From: a virus
Taxonomy: Duplodnaviria > Caudoviricetes
DNA length: 64,000 nucleotides
IMG/VR virus record: IMGVR_UViG_3300027672_000010
Coordinates: 1-64,000 of that record
Direction: 5' to 3' (one strand)
The translations under genes were made by a program, and so were the position numbers. The notes under the pieces were generated by a model. The model had not been told where the DNA came from. It saw only the letters and a program-made list of their open reading frames with translations, and searched no databases. Shown here in pieces: positions 36,651-58,941 of the stretch. The first letter of the stretch is position 1. Each line of letters begins with the position of its first letter.

Positions 36651-38651
36651 ATGTCTAAGATAGATACAATCAATGCTAAACTTTCCTCCAATGCCAAACA
36701 GGTCGGAGCAGAGTCGCACACTGGTAATATTTTACAAGCGGCAAAGAATGCTACCGAAGTAAAGAAAGCAAACACGTTGACCGTGCTTGGTAGTGACGTA
36801 GGTGTGTTGACGAATGGTTATGAGAGTTTAGACAACTGTCCTATTAGTCAGACCGATCCAAGCAAACTATTAAATAATGTATTATCAGGTGATACCTCTA
36901 GTAAGTTGAATCAGATGATGCCTAGTGCCACAGCATTCCCTAGTACTGATCCTGCCGCATTCAAGGTAAAGACACTGGGTGCCGCGACTACCTCAATGGT
37001 AGCACAGGTTATCCAAACAAATGTATTCGATAGCGCAGGTGATCTAGTAGGACACGATTCTGCATCCTTGGGATCATTGGTTCCTACCGTGACACTTGGT
37101 GCTGATGTAACTCAGAATGTAAATGAAGTAATGACTTCCTTGACTGGAATCGTACCTCCACTCGAACCAATTACTATTGTGTCTTTGGGTGGGTCTGCCG
37201 TAGATGCTATCGCAGGTGCTATAGGAGAAGCAAAAGATTCTAAAGCAACTATCCTCGCGAAGATATCCACTGTGGCAGGTGAAGCAAGTAAACAAAGCGG
37301 TGGTGTTGGACAGGATGCGTTGAAAGGTAATGCCGCCATGAAGGAGGTAATGCAGAAAAAAGATTCATTAGTCGGTGATATTCTGGGTGCGGTAAGTGCC
37401 GTAGAAGGTCTTGCTGATACTGCCGCTGAAACTGCCGCAAATGCTGTAGGATCTGCGCTTGGTGGACTACAAGACAAATTAGAAACTACTGTCGGTGATC
37501 TTACTGAATCTATTGAAGACTCCGATGGATTGGATAAGTTATTGAGTAGCATCACTAAGGCAGTAGGCGAAGGTATTTCTAATATTGTTGGTCAAGTTGC
37601 TGATGGATTATCTGATGTGGTAGGTTCGTTACAAGTATTGGGAGAACAATTGACAGGTACATTGAGAAGTGCTTTCGCAGGTGCGATAGGTGGGTTGCCA
37701 TTATCTGATGAAAAGGTTTCCGAATTAACACTTCTTATGCAAAAGGGTGATGATGTTTCTAAGACTAAAGCGGCAGTGATACTGGCACAAGCGGCAGATC
37801 CTAGTCCTGCTATGAAGAAGGTTATTGCTGAAGCAGGTGATAATGCTTCTACTGTAACTGGTTTTAAAGAACTAGTAGAGTCTAAAGCAAGGGCGGCAGG
37901 TATTCCTACCGCAGAAGTACAGAAGTTTAGTTCTACTCAAGACAAGATTGAATCATCATTAGAAGCAGTGACTACTACTATCGCAGGATCTAATGTATCC
38001 GAAGCAGGTACATTCTATAAAGAAGAAGTCGATCTAGCAGTCCTTGCCAAAAGATATAAAGAATCAAGTACTAAAGTATTCCCTTATGTTAACTCTAAGG
38101 AAGAACTTCAGTTAGAGATCTTCAAGACAACTCGTGAAGTTAGCGAGATAGTTGTCCATGCCACCGAGAGTTACACCAATGCTAATATCGGTAGTGAAGA
38201 GATTCATATACGACACATCGAAGCAGGGCATGATGGTATTCAATATCACTATGTCATTAGGCGCGATGGTACACTACAACGCGGTATCCCAACGGATACT
38301 CCGAGTACTGCCAGTGCTATTCTGGGTCACGACAAGAACTGTATTGATGTTGTATTGGTCGGTGGTGTTAACGTACCGTCCGAAGCAGACTATCCGTTGT
38401 TGAATCTAAGTGCTTCATCATTTACCCAAGCACAGATGAAGACTCTAGAAGCAATATGTGAATCATTCTACCTGAAAGTTTCGGGTGGTCAAGTGATGGG
38501 TCATAATGCTATAGATCGAAACTCTCAAGATCCATACTTTGATGTTGTGTCTTATGTCGAAAACAAGTTCGGCAAGAAGAGTGTGTACGAAGACCTTCTG
38601 ACCGAAACATCATTATCACTGAAAGACTTGATTACGAAGAGAGCAGTATGA
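36651..38651 (+). CDS. Long helical protein with C-terminal T7-lysozyme-like amidase domain
   Basis: IVVHAT, IQYHYVIRRDG.LQRG, I...LVGG, FT.AQ..TL, GH...DP.FDV. Confidence 0.8.
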   Translation: MSKIDTINAKLSSNAKQVGAESHTGNILQAAKNATEVKKANTLTVLGSDVGVLTNGYESLDNCPISQTDPSKLLNNVLSGDTSSKLNQMMPSATAFPSTDPAAFKVKTLGAATTSMVAQVIQTNVFDSAGDLVGHDSASLGSLVPTVTLGADVTQNVNEVMTSLTGIVPPLEPITIVSLGGSAVDAIAGAIGEAKDSKATILAKISTVAGEASKQSGGVGQDALKGNAAMKEVMQKKDSLVGDILGAVSAVEGLADTAAETAANAVGSALGGLQDKLETTVGDLTESIEDSDGLDKLLSSITKAVGEGISNIVGQVADGLSDVVGSLQVLGEQLTGTLRSAFAGAIGGLPLSDEKVSELTLLMQKGDDVSKTKAAVILAQAADPSPAMKKVIAEAGDNASTVTGFKELVESKARAAGIPTAEVQKFSSTQDKIESSLEAVTTTIAGSNVSEAGTFYKEEVDLAVLAKRYKESSTKVFPYVNSKEELQLEIFKTTREVSEIVVHATESYTNANIGSEEIHIRHIEAGHDGIQYHYVIRRDGTLQRGIPTDTPSTASAILGHDKNCIDVVLVGGVNVPSEADYPLLNLSASSFTQAQMKTLEAICESFYLKVSGGQVMGHNAIDRNSQDPYFDVVSYVENKFGKKSVYEDLLTETSLSLKDLITKRAV

Positions 38652-46762: not shown

Positions 46763-49700
46763 ATGCCAAATACGTTTACAGAACAGACAATGAGATCGAC
46801 CTATAAGGACGATTATAAAGATAGTGATAATTACTCACAGATCTTATTCAACGCAGGTCGTGCGCTTCAAGCGCGTGAACTTACGCAGATGCAGACTATC
46901 ATCCAGAAAGAAATCCAACGGTTTGCTAATAATGTATACACCAAAGACGGTGTGGCAACTCAGACTGGTGGTATAACTGTTCAGAACTGGCAGTTTGCCA
47001 AGATCTCGAATGATGCGAACAACACGTTCGATACTACTGATAACCTTAACGGTGTTGTCCTTACTGGTTCACAGTCTAGCATTAAGGTAAAGGTTTACCG
47101 TGCAGTCGCGGCAACTGGTACTGATCCAGATACAATCTACATTCAGTATCTAGAAGATCCTACTGCTCGTAGTCCTGCTACTACTTTCCTAGAACCTGCT
47201 CGTGTAACTCCGGGAGAAGTTCTTTCTAATGGATCGAACATCAACCTGACAGTACAGACTACTAACACAACTGCAAACCCTGCTATTGGTACTGCGTGTG
47301 CGGTAGAAGTCGGTTCTTCTGAATTCTATGTTAAAGGACACTTTGTATTTACACCAAAGCAAGAGTTGATCGTATCTAAGTATTCGGCAGATGCAACGGC
47401 AGACATTGGTTATAAGATTGTACAAGATGTTGTTACTGTATCTGATACAGATGACTTATATGATAACCAGAATGCAACTCCTAACCGTTCAAGTCCCGGT
47501 GCTGATAGACTACGAATCAGACTTACTTTGGCAAAACGATCATCATTGGTCGCAGGTGAGACCTTCGTATACTATGCTACTATGTTCCGTGGTGTTATGG
47601 AGAACGAAGTAACTCAGAAAGAAAACTATGGTTTCCATGATCATGTCGCTACACGCGTCCGTGAGATTCATGGTGACTTCATTACAAAATATTGGAAGAT
47701 TGGTATTGCTCCAGACGCAAAGAGTACAACCAACTTCATCATGCGAGTAGATCCGGGAACTGCATATATTGACGGTCACCGTATTGCTACTAAGCAAACT
47801 CAAAGTCTTATTGTTCCTCGTGCTACTGATACTATTGTTCGTGAAGAAGATCAGGTTGGTGTTGACTACGGCAACTACTTCTACTTCAACGATGGCGTTG
47901 GTATGTTGGATATCGATGTCTGTGAATCAGTTAACCTTTATAAAGGTACGGCAGGGCAAGACTCAGTAATTGGTACTGCTAACATTCGTGCGATTACCGA
48001 AGGTGCTTCGGGTACAAGAGTAGGTGGAAACTCTTACGATAGCGTACCTGCATTTAAGGCACACTTATTCAATATCAATCGTACTAACTTTAACTGGTCA
48101 CTTGCAGACGTTTCGTCTATCAAGTCTGTTGCAAACACTCATTATGTCAATACTGTTAAGACAACTAGTAGTGGCAATTCGATTAACAGTGCGGCACTAC
48201 TTCACGAACCAAAGAAGAATGCTTTAATCTTTGATACGCCTTTGCGTAGACCAAAGAACTTCTCTGATGTCACTATGACATTTATGAAGAAGTATAACTT
48301 CACTTCTAGTGGTACCACTCACTTGATTAATCTAACTGATGCAGGTGAATCATTCGTTCGTGCTAGTGATGTGATTGTCGCATCTACTACAGATTTTAAT
48401 CCGAACGGTGTATCTGCCGCGATCTCTACCGCAGGTAATAAGAGAATAACTTTCTCTGGTCTTACTGGTAGTGTCGCATACGAAGTTATCGTATTCATTA
48501 AGAAGACTAATGCTACTGTTAAGTCCAAGACCCTAACGTCTGCGACTGTTACTGCCGCATTGGATTCTGATGGTCAAGGTCGTTACTTCTTAGATCTTGG
48601 TCAATCAGATGTCTATAGTGTTGAACGTATTCGTAAGACTAACTCCGATGGATCAGATCTCTTTACTAACTTCTTGTTTGATGCAGGTAACCGTACTACT
48701 CACCAAGCAGATGGTAAGTTAATCTGGTCTGGTGGTGGTCTTGATAGTTCTACAGATGGTCAAGTCTTTGCTCGATACAAGTACTTCGCAAACTCTACCG
48801 CAGGTTCATTCTTTGCAGTCAACTCTTATGATGGTCAGTTAGACTATCTTGATGTTCCTGCTCAGAAACTACCTACTGGCGGCAAGGTATCTTTGCGTGA
48901 CGCAATCGACTTCCGTCCTTCAATGAACGGTTCTGGTGCGTTTAGTGCAACTGATGTGCCACCTTTACCAGTACCATCCGATACAATTATCGCAGATGCC
49001 GAATACTACTTGCCTCGTGCAGACCGTTTGGTTATCTCAGACAAGAGCGAACTACGTTATATTACTGGTTCATCTTCTCTTAATCCTAAGTTCCCTGACA
49101 TTCCAGTGGATTGTATTGATCTTTATAAGGTTAAGTTAGGGGCGAACACTCTACACACCCAAGATCTCAAAACAACTATTATCCCTCGTAAGGGATATAC
49201 GATGCAAGACATCAACAAGTTGGAACAGAAAGTTGATCGTCTAGAAGAGATGACTACACTTTCATTACTTGAGTTGAACACTAAGTTCTTACAAGTATTA
49301 GATAGTGCTGGTGATGATCGTTCTAAGGCAGGTTTCTTTGTAGATAACTTCTCTAACCATTCCCACACTTCGATAGGTACTAATGTCGGTGGCGGTGGTA
49401 AGTCTTCGATTGATCCCCATGCTAAATTGATGCGTCCTACTTACTCAGAAGATGCTATCGATATGTACTATGATAGTAATCACTCTCTACAGTTAAACAC
49501 TGTTAAGCAAGGCGATTTCGTTACACTAAACTACTCTACGGTTGGATACCAGTCACAAGAACTTGCATCTAATACAGAGAACCTTGCGCCATTCTATGTA
49601 CAGACTTCTATTGGCGCATTGTCAATATCTCCTGAAACCGATAACTGGTTTGATACACAGAAAGTCGGTGAGACTGTTGTAGGTACAGCAACCGAACTAG

Positions 49701-52700
49701 ACTTAACCCATGCTTTATCTTGGAACAACTCTGAGAACTCTTGGTATGGTGTTGATCCTAGTGAACTAGATGTTGGTGATGCTTCTAACTCATTCATCTC
49801 TGGTACTTCTACTCAGGTTACTCACGATTCATTAGACCCAATCCTCATTGGTACTCAACAAACCGAGCATCTTGGAGAGTGGGTTAAAGTTGGTAACGTA
49901 ACTGATGTTGAAACACTATTCACCGAAGTAGTAGAAATCTCTAGGGAACGTGAAGAAGAGATCTCACGAACTACCATCGATTCTTATTGGCAAGCAATAC
50001 AAGATGGCACTTATGAAGATTACTGGGGCAACTGGGACGGTCACTGGGATGGCGTGAACTGGGATAGTCTCTATGGCGTAGGCACTAACTTCTTCACTGG
50101 TGACTTTGGTCTAGGTGGAAACAGTTACGAGGGCGGTGGTCTTTATGGATGGGGATCATTCGATTGGTCATTCGAAGAAATCACTACAGATATGTGGGAT
50201 GTTATTACTTCTGAAACAAGAGATACTGTACGGACTGCTAATACTTCTACATACGAGACTACTCGAACAATCAATACAGAGAATACCTACGAAGGTACTG
50301 TAGAGACAACTACTGCCACAAGCACTTCAAGCACAGTAAACCGTGTTGCAAGTGAGTCAACTATTCGAGACATTATTGGTAGTCGAATCGTAGATGTTGC
50401 AGTTATACCATTCATGCGTCCTATTAGAATCAACTTCAAAGCAGAAGGACTTCGTGCTAACACACAGTACTTCCCATTCTTTGACGGTGAGAACGTATCT
50501 ACTTTCTGTAGAGAAGAGACTGTATACCAAACTTATGGTGACAAGTCTTATACTCTTGCACAAGGTGTTGAGGATGATGAGGGGACTCAACGTCCTACTC
50601 AGGATCACTCACAAGGAAAGACTAACTTAGTCGCCAATGCAGACGGTGAGATCATAGGTTCTTTCGAAGTTCCTAATGGTACTCACATGAGATTCAAGAC
50701 TGGTAGTCGAACATTTGCGATGTATGATGTTAATGCTTCGGATCGGCAATCGGCAATGTCTTTTTGTGAGACAGTATTTACTTCGGCAGGTGTTTTGAAC
50801 AAGACCGAAGATAACGTACAAGTAACTCGCATACTCAAGATTGTTGGTGGATCGACTGTTGCAGTTGAATCCACTACGGCAGTTGAGAATACAGTATGGA
50901 CAGAAAGTGTTGTAACTACCGAAGTTGCCACCGATGTTAGATCAACATCTACTACTACTGTAATCGCAGGGGATCAGTCAACTACTCGCGAACACGTCGG
51001 TCAGACTGTCGTAATAGATCATGGTTGGGGAACTTATCCAGTAGATCATACTACTGACACAGTAACTCCTCCCGGTGGTTCTGGTACACCAGAAACTCAA
51101 CCTGCCGCAGAAGTTCCTGCCAGAAATAGAGGTAAGGGCAATCGAGGAATGCAAGATGGTGGCGCAAGATATGTCGATCCTATTGCACAGACTTTCCAAG
51201 TACTAGAAGCAGGTGGTATCTTCATGCCTAGCGTCGAAGTATACTTTGCGACTAAGGGTAGCACTTCGGTAAGATGTGAGATTCGTCCTGCTGTTCAAGG
51301 AAAACCTTCTTCTACTTCTATCTTGGCATTCAAGGTTCTTAAAGCAAGTCAAGTTAACTTGGTATCGGCAGGTTCTACAAACAAAGAGATGCTACAAAAC
51401 TCTACTAAGTTTATATTTGACAACCCTCTGTTCCTTGCTCCGGGAGAATACTCAATTGTATTAATTCCTACAGACAACAACCCAGACTATAATGTCTATG
51501 TTGGTACTGTTGGTGAGTTCCAGTTGGGATCAAGTACTTCGTTTATATCACAACAACCGACTCTGGGTGGATTCTTTAAATCTCAGAACGGTAAGTTATG
51601 GGAACCATCTAGTGACATTGACTTATGTTACAGACTTAACTGTTGTCAGTTTGTTAGTAGCGGTAATGCGATATTTGAGAACAGTAATGTATCACCACAA
51701 GCACTAGGCAAAGACCCATTACTTGTTGACTCAGGTAGTAACGTTCGAGTAATGTTACAGGGTCATGGTTTACGCGCAGGTGATATGACTTGGATTCGTG
51801 GTATTGACTCCGCAACTAACTTTGGTAATGGTCTTACTGGTGCTGATGTAATTGGCCCTAGAACAGTCATCCAAGCAGATAACTCTGGTTACACATATGC
51901 CGCAGATGCTAACGTAACTTCTCGTAAGTGGTTCGGTGGTTCTTCTGTGACTTCACAACGTAACATTAACTTTGACAGACTCAAACCAATAATGAACTTA
52001 ACTCAACCTTCTTCGACTAACATTACGTTGTCTATGAAGACTACTAGTCAATCTGCTCTGGCAGGTGATCAGACTAGGTTCGTAAAAGATAGTAAGTTTA
52101 GTATTGTTGAGAATAACAAGTGGATTGAGTTTGCTCAACCAAAAGCAATCTACAATAGACGTACCGAGAACTTGACTGGTGCAGGTAAGTTAGCAGGTGA
52201 GAGATCTTCTACTCTACAGGTTACTATGGCAACGACTAACCCATTCCTATCTCCAGTACTTGATCTGGAAGGAATGAGTCTGAATGCTTGTGCTAACTTG
52301 ATATCTAAACAAGACTCTGCCGCAACTGTCGGTTACAATGTTCCGTTAACTTATGTATCAGAGAGATCACCTCTCAACGGTACCGAATCTGCGAAGCATA
52401 TAACTAAGGTTACTACTCTAACAGATGCCGCAGTTGGTCTAAAGGTATTACTTGCCGCTAACCGTCCTCCTGAGTCTGACTTCCAGATTTACTGGAGAGT
52501 GGCGAGTGGTTCAGATCCTATCCAGAAGATGGCATGGACTATTGCACCTGCCGAAGTATCTCCACAACCAGATACGAACAAGAACGTGTTCCGTGAGTAT
52601 CGTTACCTAGTAGGTGGTGAAGGTGGTACTATGAATCCATTTACTCAGTTCCAAGTCAAGATTGTTATGCGATCTACTAACAGTGCGAAATGTCCTACCT

Positions 52701-52735
52701 TCCGTGACTTACGCATAATGGCATTGGCAGTATAA
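46763..52735 (+). CDS. Large virion structural protein (VrlC/DUF4815-like)
   Basis: LF..GRALQARELT.MQ, PGADRL, YYLPR.D, YTM.DI..LE, GFFVDNF, DP.AQTF. Confidence 0.8.
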   Translation: MPNTFTEQTMRSTYKDDYKDSDNYSQILFNAGRALQARELTQMQTIIQKEIQRFANNVYTKDGVATQTGGITVQNWQFAKISNDANNTFDTTDNLNGVVLTGSQSSIKVKVYRAVAATGTDPDTIYIQYLEDPTARSPATTFLEPARVTPGEVLSNGSNINLTVQTTNTTANPAIGTACAVEVGSSEFYVKGHFVFTPKQELIVSKYSADATADIGYKIVQDVVTVSDTDDLYDNQNATPNRSSPGADRLRIRLTLAKRSSLVAGETFVYYATMFRGVMENEVTQKENYGFHDHVATRVREIHGDFITKYWKIGIAPDAKSTTNFIMRVDPGTAYIDGHRIATKQTQSLIVPRATDTIVREEDQVGVDYGNYFYFNDGVGMLDIDVCESVNLYKGTAGQDSVIGTANIRAITEGASGTRVGGNSYDSVPAFKAHLFNINRTNFNWSLADVSSIKSVANTHYVNTVKTTSSGNSINSAALLHEPKKNALIFDTPLRRPKNFSDVTMTFMKKYNFTSSGTTHLINLTDAGESFVRASDVIVASTTDFNPNGVSAAISTAGNKRITFSGLTGSVAYEVIVFIKKTNATVKSKTLTSATVTAALDSDGQGRYFLDLGQSDVYSVERIRKTNSDGSDLFTNFLFDAGNRTTHQADGKLIWSGGGLDSSTDGQVFARYKYFANSTAGSFFAVNSYDGQLDYLDVPAQKLPTGGKVSLRDAIDFRPSMNGSGAFSATDVPPLPVPSDTIIADAEYYLPRADRLVISDKSELRYITGSSSLNPKFPDIPVDCIDLYKVKLGANTLHTQDLKTTIIPRKGYTMQDINKLEQKVDRLEEMTTLSLLELNTKFLQVLDSAGDDRSKAGFFVDNFSNHSHTSIGTNVGGGGKSSIDPHAKLMRPTYSEDAIDMYYDSNHSLQLNTVKQGDFVTLNYSTVGYQSQELASNTENLAPFYVQTSIGALSISPETDNWFDTQKVGETVVGTATELDLTHALSWNNSENSWYGVDPSELDVGDASNSFISGTSTQVTHDSLDPILIGTQQTEHLGEWVKVGNVTDVETLFTEVVEISREREEEISRTTIDSYWQAIQDGTYEDYWGNWDGHWDGVNWDSLYGVGTNFFTGDFGLGGNSYEGGGLYGWGSFDWSFEEITTDMWDVITSETRDTVRTANTSTYETTRTINTENTYEGTVETTTATSTSSTVNRVASESTIRDIIGSRIVDVAVIPFMRPIRINFKAEGLRANTQYFPFFDGENVSTFCREETVYQTYGDKSYTLAQGVEDDEGTQRPTQDHSQGKTNLVANADGEIIGSFEVPNGTHMRFKTGSRTFAMYDVNASDRQSAMSFCETVFTSAGVLNKTEDNVQVTRILKIVGGSTVAVESTTAVENTVWTESVVTTEVATDVRSTSTTTVIAGDQSTTREHVGQTVVIDHGWGTYPVDHTTDTVTPPGGSGTPETQPAAEVPARNRGKGNRGMQDGGARYVDPIAQTFQVLEAGGIFMPSVEVYFATKGSTSVRCEIRPAVQGKPSSTSILAFKVLKASQVNLVSAGSTNKEMLQNSTKFIFDNPLFLAPGEYSIVLIPTDNNPDYNVYVGTVGEFQLGSSTSFISQQPTLGGFFKSQNGKLWEPSSDIDLCYRLNCCQFVSSGNAIFENSNVSPQALGKDPLLVDSGSNVRVMLQGHGLRAGDMTWIRGIDSATNFGNGLTGADVIGPRTVIQADNSGYTYAADANVTSRKWFGGSSVTSQRNINFDRLKPIMNLTQPSSTNITLSMKTTSQSALAGDQTRFVKDSKFSIVENNKWIEFAQPKAIYNRRTENLTGAGKLAGERSSTLQVTMATTNPFLSPVLDLEGMSLNACANLISKQDSAATVGYNVPLTYVSERSPLNGTESAKHITKVTTLTDAAVGLKVLLAANRPPESDFQIYWRVASGSDPIQKMAWTIAPAEVSPQPDTNKNVFREYRYLVGGEGGTMNPFTQFQVKIVMRSTNSAKCPTFRDLRIMALAV

Positions 52736-52965: not shown

Positions 52966-55761
52966 ATGTCAAGACCATTTACTAAATTATCAGACTCGTT
53001 TAAGATATTACGAGACAACCTGAATACGACATCGTATAACGTTGGCGATCCAGATAACTTACTTACTTATGGTGACAGTGATGTTGTCATGGCAATCAAT
53101 GAGATCGAAAGAGTCTTTGATGCTTCGGCAGGTGAAATATTATATCCTACTGGTAATGCACTACAGGGCGAAACCCAAACACGACTATTGATTAGTACTG
53201 CACAAGCAAGTGGTACTGATATCCAATTTAATGTCGGAGCAAACTTCAACGTCAATGCAGTGGGTGATATTAACCTAGATGCAGGTGGAGCGAACATCAA
53301 CTTCCTTGATGATTCGGTTGCGCGTTTCAACTTTACATTAGGTGCAACTAACGTAGTAGACGTTACTGGTATCCTTGACCTTAATATTTCGAGTAACCTA
53401 GATGCAGATATTGCAGGTAACTCAGTACTTACGACCACTGGATCCCAAACCCAAGAGGGCACAACCCTTAACCTAGACTTCTCTGGTGATATCACCTTAG
53501 ACGCTGATGGTAACGACATCATATTTAAGAATGGTGCAGGTGGTGATCAAGTAACGCATACTCTTCTCGACAATGCAAAGTACACTATTGCCGCACCTGA
53601 TGACTACACTATTGATGCTGTAGGGGATATAGTACTTGATGCAGGTGGAGACAATATAACACTGAAGGATGCAGGTACTACTCGTATCGGTTATACCCTT
53701 GGTGCTACAAACACTATTGCGACTACTGGCAACTTAACAAACAATACGTCTGGTGCAGTAGTTGATTCTGCCGCATCATACACAGGTACATTCACTGGTG
53801 CATATGCTACTACCGCAGGTGGTAATCAAACTGCCACAGTGGGTGGTAACTATGTCCTAGATGCAAACGGTGACATAACCCTAGACGCGAACGGTAATGA
53901 TATTATCCTTCGTGATGGTGCAGATGATCGAATCAAACACACACTTGGTGCTACTAACACTACTGCCGTGACAGGTAACTATACTGTCGATGCGTCTGGA
54001 GACATTGTTCTCGATGCAGGTGGTAATGACTTAGACATTAAAGGTGCAGGTACTACTCGTTTCGCATATGGTCTTGGTACTAGTAACACAATAGATGTTA
54101 CAGGAAACTTAACACAGACTATTGCAGGTGCTTATTCAGATAGTGCTACTGGTGCTTATCATATTGGTGCTACTGGCGCACTTGACATTGTTAGCGCGTC
54201 AACTTTAGTAACTAGTTCTAAGGCACAGACCCACACATCTAACGGTGCATATAACGTCAATGTAACAGGTGCCGCTAAGATTGCCGCATCAACTACTATC
54301 ACATTAGACGCGGCAGGGGATATTATCCTTGACGCGGCAGGTGATGACGTAATCCTTAAAGATGCAGGGACAGAGTACGGAAGATTCAAACACGCAGGTG
54401 CCAATCAATTAGGTATCTACTCTAATGGTATCCTGACTGCAACACTGAATGACTCAGACATTGTATTCAACAACGATGTTAACATTGAGAATGATCTTGA
54501 TGTAGACCGTGACTTGAATGTTGATCGTAACACTACCTTAAATGGTAATGTTGATCTGGGTAATGCTACTGGAGATACTATCTCTTTCCTTGGTCGTGTT
54601 GATACAAACATCGTACCAAGCACAGACGGTACTCGTGACCTTGGTTCTGCCTCACTAGAGATGCGACATGGTTTCTTCGATGGAACAGTAACTACTGATA
54701 GTCTTGTCACAGACAGTGCAGACATTGCTAACTTTAATGTTGTTTCCAATACAATAAGTAATCCTAATGCAGTGACCCTAGATGGTGGTAATGCCATTAA
54801 CCTAGACACTCATACTGGTTCTTTGACAATGAAGAAAGCAGGGACTACTCGTCTTGCATATACTCTTGCCGCGAACAACGTATTAAATGCGACTGGTAGT
54901 TTGACTACTAATGCTACTACCCTGATAAAGGACTCTGCCACTACTAGTCACACAACTGTAGCAGGTACTTCGATAGTACATACCGCAGGTACCACACTGA
55001 CTAATACGTCTGGTGGCGCAATGACACAAACGTCTGGTGGAAACTGGACTGCGACTGTAACAGGTGCCGCCAAGATAGACGCGTCAACTACCATCACATT
55101 AGATGCGAATACAGACATTGTTCTTGATGCAAATAGTGGTAACGTATATCTCAAAGACAACGGTACTCAGTTTGGTCGATTCCAAAACAGTAGCAATCAA
55201 TTAGATATATACTCTGGGACTACACTTGCAGTAGCAATGGACGCAAGCAAAGTAGAGATTCATGGTCGCGCATTCTTCGTAGACAGTGGCGTGAATACTG
55301 TGGCACAGAACATAGCAGGTTCTATCAATGAGATACATACTCAGTTAGATTCGGCAGTATCAGAGATCCTTGTTAACAAGGGAAACATTGCTACTAATGA
55401 TGCAGAACTTGCAGTTCATCTTTCAAGACTCGATTCTGATAGTACTCAGTTGGCATTTAACATTGGAAGACTGGATTCTGATAGTACTCAGTTGGCAGTT
55501 AACATTGGAAGACTTGATTCTGATGCTACTTTCTTGCAATCTAACCTTGGTAGGATTGATACCAACTCAGCAAACATAGCGACTAACGTAAGTAACATTA
55601 CTGCTGTCAATACTTTGGTAGGAACTCTGAATACATTAGATTCTTCTGCTCCGGGCGGTTTCTTCAAAGGTATAAATAATGATAGTATCGTTAAAGCGTT
55701 AAATGAACTGGCAACTAGAACTGTCCTTATCTATGACGAAAGCGGTACTCTTCTAAACTAA
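52966..55761 (+). CDS. Tail fibre-like protein
   Basis: GDI.LDA.G repeats, C-terminal coiled coil; located in tail module. Confidence 0.75.
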   Translation: MSRPFTKLSDSFKILRDNLNTTSYNVGDPDNLLTYGDSDVVMAINEIERVFDASAGEILYPTGNALQGETQTRLLISTAQASGTDIQFNVGANFNVNAVGDINLDAGGANINFLDDSVARFNFTLGATNVVDVTGILDLNISSNLDADIAGNSVLTTTGSQTQEGTTLNLDFSGDITLDADGNDIIFKNGAGGDQVTHTLLDNAKYTIAAPDDYTIDAVGDIVLDAGGDNITLKDAGTTRIGYTLGATNTIATTGNLTNNTSGAVVDSAASYTGTFTGAYATTAGGNQTATVGGNYVLDANGDITLDANGNDIILRDGADDRIKHTLGATNTTAVTGNYTVDASGDIVLDAGGNDLDIKGAGTTRFAYGLGTSNTIDVTGNLTQTIAGAYSDSATGAYHIGATGALDIVSASTLVTSSKAQTHTSNGAYNVNVTGAAKIAASTTITLDAAGDIILDAAGDDVILKDAGTEYGRFKHAGANQLGIYSNGILTATLNDSDIVFNNDVNIENDLDVDRDLNVDRNTTLNGNVDLGNATGDTISFLGRVDTNIVPSTDGTRDLGSASLEMRHGFFDGTVTTDSLVTDSADIANFNVVSNTISNPNAVTLDGGNAINLDTHTGSLTMKKAGTTRLAYTLAANNVLNATGSLTTNATTLIKDSATTSHTTVAGTSIVHTAGTTLTNTSGGAMTQTSGGNWTATVTGAAKIDASTTITLDANTDIVLDANSGNVYLKDNGTQFGRFQNSSNQLDIYSGTTLAVAMDASKVEIHGRAFFVDSGVNTVAQNIAGSINEIHTQLDSAVSEILVNKGNIATNDAELAVHLSRLDSDSTQLAFNIGRLDSDSTQLAVNIGRLDSDATFLQSNLGRIDTNSANIATNVSNITAVNTLVGTLNTLDSSAPGGFFKGINNDSIVKALNELATRTVLIYDESGTLLN
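55425..55530 (+). repeat. 42-nt tandem repeat x2.5 (RLDSDSTQLAxNIG)
   Basis: Near-identical AGACTNGATTCTGATAGTACTCAGTTGGCA units. Confidence 0.85.
55671..55678 (+). promoter_or_regulatory. Late promoter
   Basis: TATAAATA about 100 nt upstream of 55774. Confidence 0.7.
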
Positions 55762-55773
55762 GTAGGAAAGAGA

Positions 55774-58700
55774 ATGTCGAATAATAAGACATTACCGTTA
55801 AAGTTAAAAGACAGTGATGGTAATCTCCAACAGATCAGTGCAACGGAGAAGAACTATGTTGCCTACCTTGCAGGACTACAGAACGCGCAAGCGGATAGTA
55901 GTGATGTAGGTCTTCTCACGCTTGCCTCTAGTGGAAACCGAGGAATCGGTTCCACCCTAGACACCTACTACCCAGAACCAGTAGGTACGCATCCTTACGA
56001 CCAAGTTTCGGTAATCAGTAGCACAAAGAACCTGTTCCAGATTAATGGTACGGCAAGCGAAGCAGATAGTGACTTCCGTCTACCCATTGCTCATTTCGGG
56101 GCGCACGTTTACGAACAACCTGCTTCGAACTTCAATGCCTTTAGTGATGAGATCAATGCTCGTATTGTTCTATCGGACTATCCGGGATCTTTAAAGTTAT
56201 CTCCAACTGCTCCTAGTTCTGACTATAGCATACTAGTACCTTCTGTTCTGTTAGACAAACGTGCTGATTCCGCAGGTAATGCGATTGTCATTAACGATTA
56301 CTCTATCTGGCGTAGAGATACAATGACTGCTCCTAGTGCTATCCTTGATAGTAAAGGCGGCATATCAAGTCTTGCAGGTATTAAGAGATCCAATGGAGAC
56401 TCTGGTACATTCCAAGGTATACAGAAATTAACTGACAGGCAGATCCAAGTATCTGTTGGTCAACGCGCAAAGACTAGACGTGCTATCAGTGGCAACGTTG
56501 GTTCATACGAACTTCGTACTGCTTCGCAAGGTGCCCCTGCCTCTGGAACTTGGGCATCTAAGGGTACCGCTACAAACACTATTCGACTGGTCAATGAAAT
56601 TGCGTACACAAGAACCAGTACTCGATCACGAGGTTCAGCATATGCAAGAACTCGTGTAGGTAACTATACAAGAAATTCTACTCGTAATGACCCACAGAAC
56701 TTTGCAGGTAATTATGGAACTACCTATGTAGGTAACTATACAAGAACATTTGCAGGTAATTATGCAGGTGACTTCACTGGTAATTATGCTCGTGACTTCG
56801 TTGGTAACTATCAGCGTGGATTTACTGGTGACTATACTGGTAATTACACTGGTGACTATACTCGTAACTTTACACGAAACCGCGCATCTACATTTAACCG
56901 CACTAGGGCGAGTAATTACGCAGGTAATTATACAGGCAACTATGCCAGAAACTTTGAACGTACTCGCAACTCAAACTATATTCTTAGTCGTGTGTCAACC
57001 TATCAACGTGGGTTCGCAGGTAACTATACTCGTATAATAGCAGACCAATACGCAGGTAACTTCGTAGGTAACTATGCTCGTACTGGTATTGTTTCTAGAA
57101 CAAGTGCTTACTCACGAACAAGAATTCAGAATAGAGTATCAAACTACTCTCGTGCTTTCTTAGGTAACTACTCAAGAGAATATCTGCGCACATCAACAGC
57201 AACAAGTACTACTGACTTTACTGGTGAATATTCTAGACAGTACCTCCGAACTCGTGTGTCTAACTATTCTCGTAACTTTGGTGGTAACTATTCAAGAGCA
57301 TATACTCGCGCATTCATTGGTAACTATGCCAGAACATTTGCAGGTAACTTTGTTGGTAACTATGTGGGAGGTGCCACTACTTATGGTACTCAAACTGCCT
57401 ATGGGAAAACTCGTATACAGAACAGGATAGTAACTTACATAGGTAACTATACACAGATTCGTACATCTCTCTATACAGGTAACTTTACGAGAGGCACTTA
57501 TTTTACAGGAAACTATATTGGAACTAATTGGCCAACAAGTGAAGTAAATCGATATGTCGGTAACTACACTCAGGGATTTACTCGCATATATGTTGCGAAT
57601 GCACAAAACTTCCAAGGTAACTACACAGGTGCGCAAATCTTTTATGGTGGGTTCTCAGGTGACTTTACTGATTATAGGTATGGTGGTTTCTACACTGGTG
57701 TAGAAAGTACCGTAACATTCACCGGTGACTTTACGAGAACTAGGGTAGCACTAGGAGCGTTTACTAGAGTATCTAATGTCGGTGATGGAAATTATCTTAG
57801 AAATAGTGGCGTTGGATACACTAGAACCAGAACATCTACTATAATCTCAGTAAGGGAAAGAGCAAGTACGAATATTGGTTATGCCAGACTTGGCCCCGCG
57901 AAAGGCGGCAGTCCGCTATACTATATTGGTGCAGGTTTCTATACAGGTAACTACACAGGCCTCCAAAACTTTACTGGCAACTTCCTTAGATTGTTTGTGG
58001 GCAACTACGTCCGTACCTTCAATAGATCTTCTAGTCGTCAGTTCAGTCGTCTAATATTGGGGTCAAGGTACTCAACCTTTACTGGCAACTATGTTGGTAA
58101 CTATGCTCGTGCCTTTACTAGAACTTCTACACGAAATAGAGACAGCACTTACATTAGAACTCGAACCTCAAGTTACACAAGAAACTTTGAACGTACTCGT
58201 GTATCAAACTATACTCGCGACTTCGCAGGTAACTTCTCAAGAAACTTCAGTAGAATACGCGTTAGTTCTTACATAGGTAATTTCATTGGTAACTATTCTA
58301 GAATCTTTGTGGGTGACTATAGTAGAAACTATGCGAGAACATTCGTAGGAAATTACACTGGTAACTATCAGAGAACGTTTATTGGTAACTACACAAGAGA
58401 TTATAACAGAACTTCTACGCGAACAAGTATCGTTAACAGAACCTCTGCATATAATAGAACTCGTGTATCAAACTATGCTCGTACCTTTGTAGGAGACTAC
58501 ACAAGAAACTTCGGTGGTAACTACGCAAGAAACTTTACTGCTGATTATACTAGAATAAGAGCATCATCTTTTGCTAGGACTAGAACTTCTAACTTTACTA
58601 GAAATCGTGGTTCAACATATACAGGTGTATACTCTGCTGTTTATGTAGGCATATATAGTAGAGCATATAGTCGTACCCGAACAAGTAACTACACTAGAAA

Positions 58701-58941
58701 CTCTACTAGAGATTCGACCAGAAACCGTGATTCGGCATATGCAAGAACTCGTGGTTCTACTTTTACTAGGTCAAGAACAAGTGCGTATACTGGTGACTTC
58801 ACTGGAGATTACACAAGAAACTTCGAGGGTAACTACTCACGGAACTTTGCAGGTAATTATGTTGGTAACTATGTTGGGCAGACTATCGGTAATAGTATAT
58901 TCAACGTGGAGACTTATACTTTATATGTAAGAACTGCATAG
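55774..58941 (+). CDS. Self-complementary repeat filament protein A (1055 aa)
   Basis: About 275-aa N-domain, then tetrapeptide repeats whose N- and C-arms (56608-57363, 58117-58872) mirror each other. Confidence 0.9.
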   Translation: MSNNKTLPLKLKDSDGNLQQISATEKNYVAYLAGLQNAQADSSDVGLLTLASSGNRGIGSTLDTYYPEPVGTHPYDQVSVISSTKNLFQINGTASEADSDFRLPIAHFGAHVYEQPASNFNAFSDEINARIVLSDYPGSLKLSPTAPSSDYSILVPSVLLDKRADSAGNAIVINDYSIWRRDTMTAPSAILDSKGGISSLAGIKRSNGDSGTFQGIQKLTDRQIQVSVGQRAKTRRAISGNVGSYELRTASQGAPASGTWASKGTATNTIRLVNEIAYTRTSTRSRGSAYARTRVGNYTRNSTRNDPQNFAGNYGTTYVGNYTRTFAGNYAGDFTGNYARDFVGNYQRGFTGDYTGNYTGDYTRNFTRNRASTFNRTRASNYAGNYTGNYARNFERTRNSNYILSRVSTYQRGFAGNYTRIIADQYAGNFVGNYARTGIVSRTSAYSRTRIQNRVSNYSRAFLGNYSREYLRTSTATSTTDFTGEYSRQYLRTRVSNYSRNFGGNYSRAYTRAFIGNYARTFAGNFVGNYVGGATTYGTQTAYGKTRIQNRIVTYIGNYTQIRTSLYTGNFTRGTYFTGNYIGTNWPTSEVNRYVGNYTQGFTRIYVANAQNFQGNYTGAQIFYGGFSGDFTDYRYGGFYTGVESTVTFTGDFTRTRVALGAFTRVSNVGDGNYLRNSGVGYTRTRTSTIISVRERASTNIGYARLGPAKGGSPLYYIGAGFYTGNYTGLQNFTGNFLRLFVGNYVRTFNRSSSRQFSRLILGSRYSTFTGNYVGNYARAFTRTSTRNRDSTYIRTRTSSYTRNFERTRVSNYTRDFAGNFSRNFSRIRVSSYIGNFIGNYSRIFVGDYSRNYARTFVGNYTGNYQRTFIGNYTRDYNRTSTRTSIVNRTSAYNRTRVSNYARTFVGDYTRNFGGNYARNFTADYTRIRASSFARTRTSNFTRNRGSTYTGVYSAVYVGIYSRAYSRTRTSNYTRNSTRDSTRNRDSAYARTRGSTFTRSRTSAYTGDFTGDYTRNFEGNYSRNFAGNYVGNYVGQTIGNSIFNVETYTLYVRTA

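Follow-up and report, generated by a model that had tools for sequence, protein, structure and literature searches.

We examined fibre protein A, encoded near the end of a 64,000-nucleotide window of tailed-phage DNA (IMG/VR record IMGVR_UViG_3300027672_000010; Duplodnaviria, Caudoviricetes). The window is the first 64 kb of one 92,722-bp contig, which carries genes for tail sheath, tail tube, major head protein and baseplate wedge subunits, based on PHROG matches. The matches to tail sheath, tail tube and baseplate wedge place the source phage among those with contractile tails. Upstream of gene A lie genes for a 1990-amino-acid (aa) DUF4815 protein and then a 931-aa fibre-like protein, and downstream lies its paralog, gene B (58990-64794, 1934 aa). 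Protein A is made up of a base domain, an arm of tetrapeptide units (N-arm), an irregular tip region, a second arm (C-arm) and a short tail (Table 1). A first-pass annotation, made by a model from the sequence alone, had claimed that the two arms have identical lengths and mostly pair unit by unit in antiparallel order, and that this geometry returns the C-terminal strand to the N-terminal domain. Our computational analysis confirmed the mirror complementarity of A's two repeat runs, and we consider it probable that A is a fold-back fibre with self-paired arms.

Mirror register and side-chain code of the two arms

In the antiparallel reading of A, unit n of the N-arm faces unit 64-n of the C-arm, and residue i faces residue 1311-i (1-based). 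The annotated bounds of both arms were reproduced, as were the unit pairs quoted for their ends: TRTS/VGNY, TRSR/AGNY, GSAY/SRNF and ARTR/EGNY at units 1-4, and ARTF/DSTY, AGNF/TRNR and VGNY/TRTS at units 61-63. Registers were scored with two log-odds pair matrices, one taken from paralog B's own mirror alignment and one trained on homologues, using only the outer 48 residues of 104 distant homologues and excluding A, B and 7 close relatives. With the B-trained matrix the proposed register of A scored 155 bits, and the runner-up 84.5. With the homologue-trained matrix it was the top of 201 registers (184 versus 141.5 bits; z 4.6 against 24 in-phase registers), and it stayed there when scoring was restricted to units 13-63 (z 3.1) or to units 33-63 (z 2.1). 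The claimed pairing also withstood shuffling of the units: of 20,000 shuffles, none scored as high as the actual unit order under either matrix, and when the test was confined to the inner 51 units, 1 and 0 of 20,000 did so with the two matrices. In an anchored alignment with a gap-open penalty of -10, 255 residues aligned ungapped on the proposed register.

The pairs of this register were counted directly at unit positions 2 and 4. At position 2, the 63 pairs include 25 Arg-Gly, 14 Arg-Ser, 9 Arg-Arg and 3 Gly-Gly. At position 4 (n = 64) there are 20 Tyr-Tyr, 19 Phe-Arg, 10 Phe-Tyr, 5 Phe-Ser, 4 Ser-Tyr and 3 Arg-Tyr pairs, and a single pair has no aromatic residue where 4.8 are expected. Phe opposite Arg at position 4 is the sharpest rule of the code: 19 Phe but only 3 Tyr lie opposite Arg (binomial p 2e-6), though Tyr is the commoner aromatic. 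The 19 Phe-Arg pairs of the proposed register compare with a mean of 5.7 (standard deviation 2.2, maximum 12.3) in 50 shifted registers. Divided by thirds of the arms, the counts are 5, 8 and 6, each above all 43-44 shifted registers. One register is thus valid from the base to the inner end of the arms, so the two runs of A carry no net insertion or deletion (indel).

Protein B was said to follow the same rules in another unit order and with fewer mismatches, and the comparison agreed on both points. Arg-Arg, which makes up 9 of the 63 position-2 pairs in A and is itself a point against strict pairing, falls outside the 30 commonest pair types among B's 706 pairs. Alignments of A's arms to B fall in many places, with 35-45% identity and 28-138 gaps, and B's C-arm is matched as well as its N-arm. 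No colinear homology between the arms of A and those of B emerged, the similarity being only that of generic repeats. A DNA palindrome was also considered as the cause of the mirror pattern and rejected, since the region holds one 19-nt inverted pair and its direct DNA repeats are mostly 60-89% alike.

Several further results within A weigh against the proposed register. In the crudest test, Arg and non-Arg at unit position 2 are complementary in 39 of 63 pairs, which is marginal, as 894 of 20,000 shuffles reach that count and two shifted registers reach 61-64%. In the 64-residue window of residues 342-405 (about units 17-32), the proposed register ranks only 23rd of 327. This stretch contains a TGDY TGNY TGDY run, where orthologues carry one unit more, and it still has Phe-Arg pairs at units 22-25, 30 and 32. 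Both matrices come from relatives and so share ancestry with A. As read from the repeat pattern, the equality "63+63" is partly by construction, since the C-side period runs 13 units further (residues 730-781); the N-side phase slip at residue 531, which falls in a VGGATTYGTQTAY element, alone sets the inner limit.

Table 1. Features of gene A and its product (nucleotide positions in the window; pLDDT, predicted local distance difference test)
Feature	Position	Strand	Residues and description	Basis
Fibre protein A gene	55774..58941	+	1055 aa plus stop	Open reading frame (ORF) list
N-terminal base domain	55774..56607	+	1-278; non-repetitive; last part is the anchor ...NEIAY	AlphaFold2 pLDDT block means 71-98; conserved in 42 near-length proteins
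N-arm	56608..57363	+	279-530; 63 tetrapeptide units; 756 nt	Register scores, shuffles, Phe-Arg counts
N-arm stretch with poor complementarity	56800..56991	+	343-406; units 17-32	Window score
Irregular tip region	57364..58116	+	531-781 (251 residues)	Sequence; pLDDT <50
VGG...TAY element in tip region	57364-57402	+	13 residues	Sequence
B-like turn motif GPAKGG in tip region	57892-57909	+	707-712	Sequence
Extra in-phase tetrapeptide units, return side of tip	57961-58116	+	730-781; 13 units	Sequence
C-arm	58117..58872	+	782-1033; 63 tetrapeptide units; 756 nt; antiparallel partner of N-arm (i with 1311-i)	Register scores, mirrored indels
C-terminal tail	58873..58938	+	22 residues, ending in ETYTLYVRTA	Predicted to join the N-terminal domain sheet

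Orthologues and the wider family

We found full-length orthologues of A by scanning viral contigs and metagenome contigs. The orthologue L006 (1075 aa, 88% identical to A) has the same sequence as L026, and L027 has the same indels. It carries 4 additional residues after A355 and 4 after A956, which are exactly mirrored (355 + 956 = 1311), and, on the N-arm side alone, a VGGSDGGTTYGT element of 12 residues that follows A466. The orthologue L005 (1115 aa, 89% identical) has the same pair of single units, placed as 4 additional residues after 350 and 4 after 948, both in ambiguous repeat runs, and a further five units (+20) in each arm, after 505 (after 520 by MAFFT) and after 786 (mirror position 525). 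Its N-arm, but not its C-arm, contains a VGG... element of 9 residues, and its tip is longer by 3 residues. Unit counts in the two arms are accordingly 63/63 in A, 64/64 in L006 and 69/69 in L005. The same +4/+4 pair occurs in L029, a 760-aa protein from a metagenome contig that is 90% identical to A over the common parts. The large deletions of L029 are not assignable to the arms, and the partial orthologues L007, L009, L028 and L034 have one arm only; these fall outside the mirrored-indel comparison. As a separate observation, L029 is without most of the tip region and the inner arms, and its tip is different and much shorter; it is a short fibre that occurs naturally or else the product of an assembly that collapsed across repeats.

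In the orthologues that gained a unit on both sides, the anchor-fixed register won over the first 193 residues, with 124 versus 51 and 140 versus 72 bits. Substitutions also coincided at mirrored positions, with 12 double substitutions versus 4.3 expected (2 of 80 shift controls reach this) and 17 versus 5.0 (0 of 80), including the exact swaps TV to VT and TS to ST. The first-pass annotation had held that complementarity was maintained separately in A and in B, and these changes of unit number at mirrored sites in both arms, together with the coincident substitutions, bear this out for A. The strongest of the new support for a fold-back comes from these mirrored unit indels of the orthologues. 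Two points count against the evidence from the orthologues: L005 and L006 share history and many substitutions, so they are not two independent tests, and in the stretch within the one-sided 9- or 12-residue insertion the predicted register is only 9th and 4th of 201 by total score. In that same stretch the predicted register has the most Phe-Arg pairs (7 and 5) among the top eight offsets by score.

The one-sided insertions belong to a recurrent element, VGG...T(A/T)YG(T/S).TA(Y/F)G, of 9-17 residues. It closes A's N-arm at 531 and is the insert in the middle of the N-arm of L005 and L006. It behaves like a looped-out bulge. Right after the VGG...TAY element of A, the anchored alignment gains 8 residues at offset +13 (k 1322).

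The strict 63+63 arrangement was weighed against a fold-back about the B-like turn GPAKGG (residues 707-712), with many small bulges on the N side. This turn motif is common to A, B and the minimal homologue P0147, and less stringent gap penalties draw the anchored alignment toward it: at gap-open -6 a drifting path with 16 N-side bulges is favoured over the ungapped register (175 versus 162 bits), which counts against the latter, and at -4 the drifting path reaches 214 bits. Such a path needs at least 16 bulges, however, and the Phe-Arg rule picks out the register without gaps in all three thirds of the arms. For the window at depth 192-255, offset 0 again ranks first of 435, and in the ungapped register the mirrored five-unit indel of L005 falls near the inner arm ends. 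A mirror hairpin inside the tip (531-781) gave no clear pairing, with best segments of 13-17 bits, and the register homologous to B's turn scored -89.6 bits. We give a fold-back about GPAKGG hardly any weight.

Beyond the orthologues, the N-terminal domain of A has 42 near-length relatives at E<=0.001 with 29-98% identity, and the whole protein has 455 representative clusters (50% identity) at the same threshold. The base-domain anchor, G.A.(N/D)T followed by 8 residues and Y/F, was aligned in 44 sequences. The tail end (E/D)TYT(L/M)Y is present in 38 of the 42 near-length proteins, the other 4 being cut off, and E1046-R1053 are among the columns conserved at >=90% in a 101-row alignment. Both anchors are present in 114 of 183 sequences. 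Because the two flanking anchors were placed by homology, with the repeats not consulted, they fix a register for each homologue. Over the outer 48 residues and with the B-trained matrix, this register ranked first of about 223 in 50 of 113 complete homologues and within the first three in 69; the 63 in which it did not rank first count against a family-wide rule. Among 28 strong 64-residue windows (18 homologues, depths 0-191), 27 keep the anchor-fixed register, the sole exception being P0068 (offset -27), so the equality of arm lengths extends to homologues. Corrected mutual information across 108 homologues has its maximum on the mirror diagonal (0.094), and any other shift gives 0.066 or less.

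The arms of short homologues change unit type at mirrored places. Among homologues in general, varied non-repetitive domains stand in the middle of the chain. One of the short homologues, P0181, has another pair of eight-residue units, with GVR(D/N)VNF(L/G) in one arm and a QPQPGTF(N/S) repeat in its partner, so there is more than one complementarity alphabet in this hairpin-fibre family. In P0006, an 18-residue element, GAQGTG.SI(V/I).GE..F, has two copies in the outward arm and two in the return arm. As a family-wide tip marker, the turn motif GG...YY.G failed, with 3 of 114 members carrying it. In A itself, the two sides of the tip, taken from the GPAKGG turn, differ by about 110 residues, and the 13 return-side units of the tip have no regular outward partner.

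These patterns might also arise with no physical pairing at all, as a by-product of an 8-residue alternation of unit types and common descent of the ends, with each arm forming, for example, its own solenoid or spiral. In-phase shifted registers of A are also positive (103 +/- 17.5 bits), as such a by-product would have it. X-drop extension from the anchors was without discrimination, running to 255 residues in A and up to 242 in shifted controls, and structure predictors yield no structure for the arms. Every in-phase shift nevertheless scores below the proposed register, orthologues gained units at mirrored sites in both arms, substitutions coincide at mirrored sites, and even homologues built from quite different units change from one type to another at mirrored points. 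We consider the absence of pairing quite unlikely, and physical beta-pairing between the arms the better explanation for what the sequences suggest.

Searches of Pfam and PHROGs gave no family match for A. A sequence search of the PDB returned one chance-level row (E 0.14), a family-profile search of the PDB returned nothing at E<=10, and Foldseek against the PDB with the whole A model returned nothing at E<=0.001. In the ESM Atlas, the only matches were viral clusters named 'hypothetical protein', at 0.77-0.80, which is the chance range. Among phage records, a relative was found only in Phage C48C1 (OQ984149), as a 3347-aa hypothetical protein. A literature search, in which the fibre atlas PMC12143355 was covered for its 'needle' passages, gave no account of this family or of a tetrapeptide-coded fold-back fibre.

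Some features of the neighbouring genes were recorded in their own right. The 1990-aa protein immediately upstream of the fibre genes (46763-52735) has a DUF4815 domain (E 6.8e-44) and a PHROG 358 match. The 931-aa fibre-like protein (52966-55761) has many GD(I/V).LDA.G..(I/L) repeats and a C-terminal tandem (R/N)(L/I)DSD...L repeat; its sole match is a weak one to a PHROG of a baseplate assembly protein (E 2.6e-4). Three small ORFs just after gene B (155, 245 and 231 aa; genome 64862-66751; L003:863-2749) have no Pfam or PHROG match. In the baseplate module, the C-terminal third of a 666-aa protein (36651-38651) resembles amidases and lysozymes of T7-like phages (25-33% identity, E about 1e-8 to 1e-14), and is probably the cell-wall-cutting part of the central hub.

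Predicted closure at the base and the proposed fibre

We predicted the structure of full-length A with AlphaFold2, based on 101 sequences. The N-terminal domain was modelled with the block means given in Table 1, and the blocks covering residues 1031-1055 reached 84, 96 and 98. Strands were predicted at 260-283 and 1028-1053, the ends of which sum to 1311. In the 397-aa homologue P0147, AlphaFold2 likewise predicted strands at 238-269 and 362-395. Other parts of these models weigh against the fold-back: residues 288-1025 of A, which take in most of both arms and the tip, and residues 267-365 of P0147 have a pLDDT of about 33 and no secondary structure, and the arms pair in no structural model.

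Contact between tail and base was also assessed in a complex prediction with residues 1-290 and 1022-1055 of one chain, three copies each. This job used our own alignment and scores only the tail against other chains. It gave a score of 0.82, versus 0.59 for the best of 3 controls, with the tail (1030-1055) touching 240-250 and 258-281. In calibration, 58 of 80 solved complexes attained the mark for such scores, as did 2 of 110 mismatched pairs; these counts apply only approximately here, given that alignment and a job unlike those of the calibration. Runs agree in at least 55% of contacts, with a partner pLDDT of at least 48; that one control reached 0.59 and that partner pLDDT lies at 48-59 tell against the result. 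Two predictors thus put the last 22-25 residues in the base sheet when the N-terminal domain is modelled with the tail, in line with the earlier expectation that the C-terminal strand returns to this domain. The model supports binding of the tail to the base but does not show it.

The partner of each arm could instead lie in a neighbouring chain of an oligomer, with the N-arm beside a neighbour's C-arm in a domain-swapped manner, or beside both its own and a neighbour's, so that the code would specify assembly. Complementarity and mirrored indels fit own-chain and neighbour-chain partners alike. Secondary maxima of the mutual information lie at shifts of +/-2 (0.065-0.066), and a further strand alongside would be consistent with the in-phase register +40, which is the runner-up in A and the top register in the orthologues' inner part. 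On the other hand, the monomer AlphaFold2 model by itself places the tail, with high confidence, on the base of its own chain; the complex output pairs tail copy 3 with base copy 3, though without discriminating power. Pairing between chains seems to us unlikely, and we prefer the fold-back with self-paired arms.

In the fold-back reading, protein A would be a fibre of a contractile-tailed, T4-like marine phage. The chain would exit a compact base domain (1-278), run outward as an extended strand of 63 four-residue units, and cross the irregular 251-residue tip, which is probably the site of host recognition. It would then come back as a second, antiparallel 63-unit strand in the register of i with 1311-i, and the 22-residue tail would complete the base-domain sheet. 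The register would be set by side-chain complementarity, with Arg against Gly or Ser at position 2, Tyr against Tyr or Phe and Arg against Phe at position 4, and, on the other face, small or beta-branched residues (Thr, Ala, Val, Ser) against Asn, Asp or Thr. As the two strands must keep register, length would evolve by equal gain or loss of units in both arms at mirrored sites, and one-sided insertions would be tolerated only as looped-out elements. By analogy with other phage fibres, this one may be a trimer with six strands. Simple arithmetic would make the paired part about 80 nm long, and the length of about 100 nm put forward in the first-pass annotation would likewise be a matter of arithmetic. 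The tip would bind the receptor.

If this reading is true, a rule that can be read from sequence would let a 250-residue strand find and keep its partner, much as base pairing does in nucleic acids, and compensatory indels would be its evolutionary signature. With a duplex of this kind, fibre length would be tunable per unit (about 1.3 nm) with the fold kept, and extra elements or whole domains could be looped from one strand. The host-recognition part would lie in the middle of the gene, and not at its end, in a large group of fibres of uncultured marine myoviruses (the 455 clusters), which would change the annotation of such fibre genes and the reading of host range from metagenomes. A and B would be two fibres of different lengths on the same base in this phage. 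For protein design, the arms would offer a modular scaffold of settable length.

Comparison with known systems

The closest parallel in layout is the needle of T4 gp37 (PDB 2XGF). In the parts of the gp37 account covered here (PMC6957217), the elongated domain D11 (882-1009) is inserted in the collar D10 (811-881 and 1010-1026), the returning chain closes the base with its C terminus, and the tip that binds the receptor sits midway along the segment. Like this needle, A has a base (1-278), arms with a tip, and a tail predicted to rejoin the base, an out-and-back insertion that in A is a matter of prediction only. The two differ in size, as D11 has 128 residues in all and A's insertion 755. In the account of that source, seven histidine-bound iron atoms hold the gp37 needle; A's arms (279-530, 782-1033), in contrast, contain no histidine. 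Neither a tetrapeptide code nor mirrored unit indels like those of A are described for gp37 in the passages covered. An hhalign comparison of A with gp37 785-1026 gave a probability of 0.3%, and comparisons with gp10, gp11 and gp12 gave 0.1-0.2%. Membership of A in the gp37-type group of collar and needle proteins is not supported.

The same portions of PMC6957217 describe the collar fold of the T4 baseplate protein gp11 (PDB 1EL6) as common to gp10, gp12 and gp37. For the last part of the base domain with the tail, gp11 is the only phage protein among the fold matches listed, and it appears with both models, at Z 3.5 (root-mean-square deviation [rmsd] 4.1, 48 aligned, 25% identity) and Z 2.7 (rmsd 4.0, 49 aligned, 26% identity). 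Chains of gp10, gp12 and gp37 do not appear among the rows listed. The Z values for gp11 are far too low for claiming that the fold is shared with A's base. The best matches of base plus tail are the beta-prisms of MACPF C-terminal and MABP domains (2QP2, 8B6V, 3TOW), with Z 6.0-6.8, rmsd 3.3-3.8 and 111-124 aligned residues. A Z below 8 denotes a common arrangement and is too low for a claim of a shared fold; identity is 6-13%, those domains are without a fibre, and no functional link exists.

Short repeats build long thin shafts in the adenovirus triple beta-spiral, the triple beta-helix, collagen-like GXY proteins and the pentapeptide beta-solenoid. In those shafts a repeat makes its contacts with the repeats next to it along the chain or with its counterparts in other chains, and the periods are 15, 3 and 5. 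A does not read as a pentapeptide-repeat protein or beta-solenoid, as its period is 4 over 63+63 units and no Pfam repeat family matched. Unlike the fold-back proposed for A, those shafts need no mirror-order complementarity of distant halves, so they predict no mirrored indels. It may be, with slightly less than even credence on our part, that A stands for a new class of fibrous protein, a beta 'duplex' with a side-chain register code that evolves in the manner of an RNA stem, by compensatory substitutions and paired unit insertions. Among known designs, A would be a variant of the out-and-back fibre.

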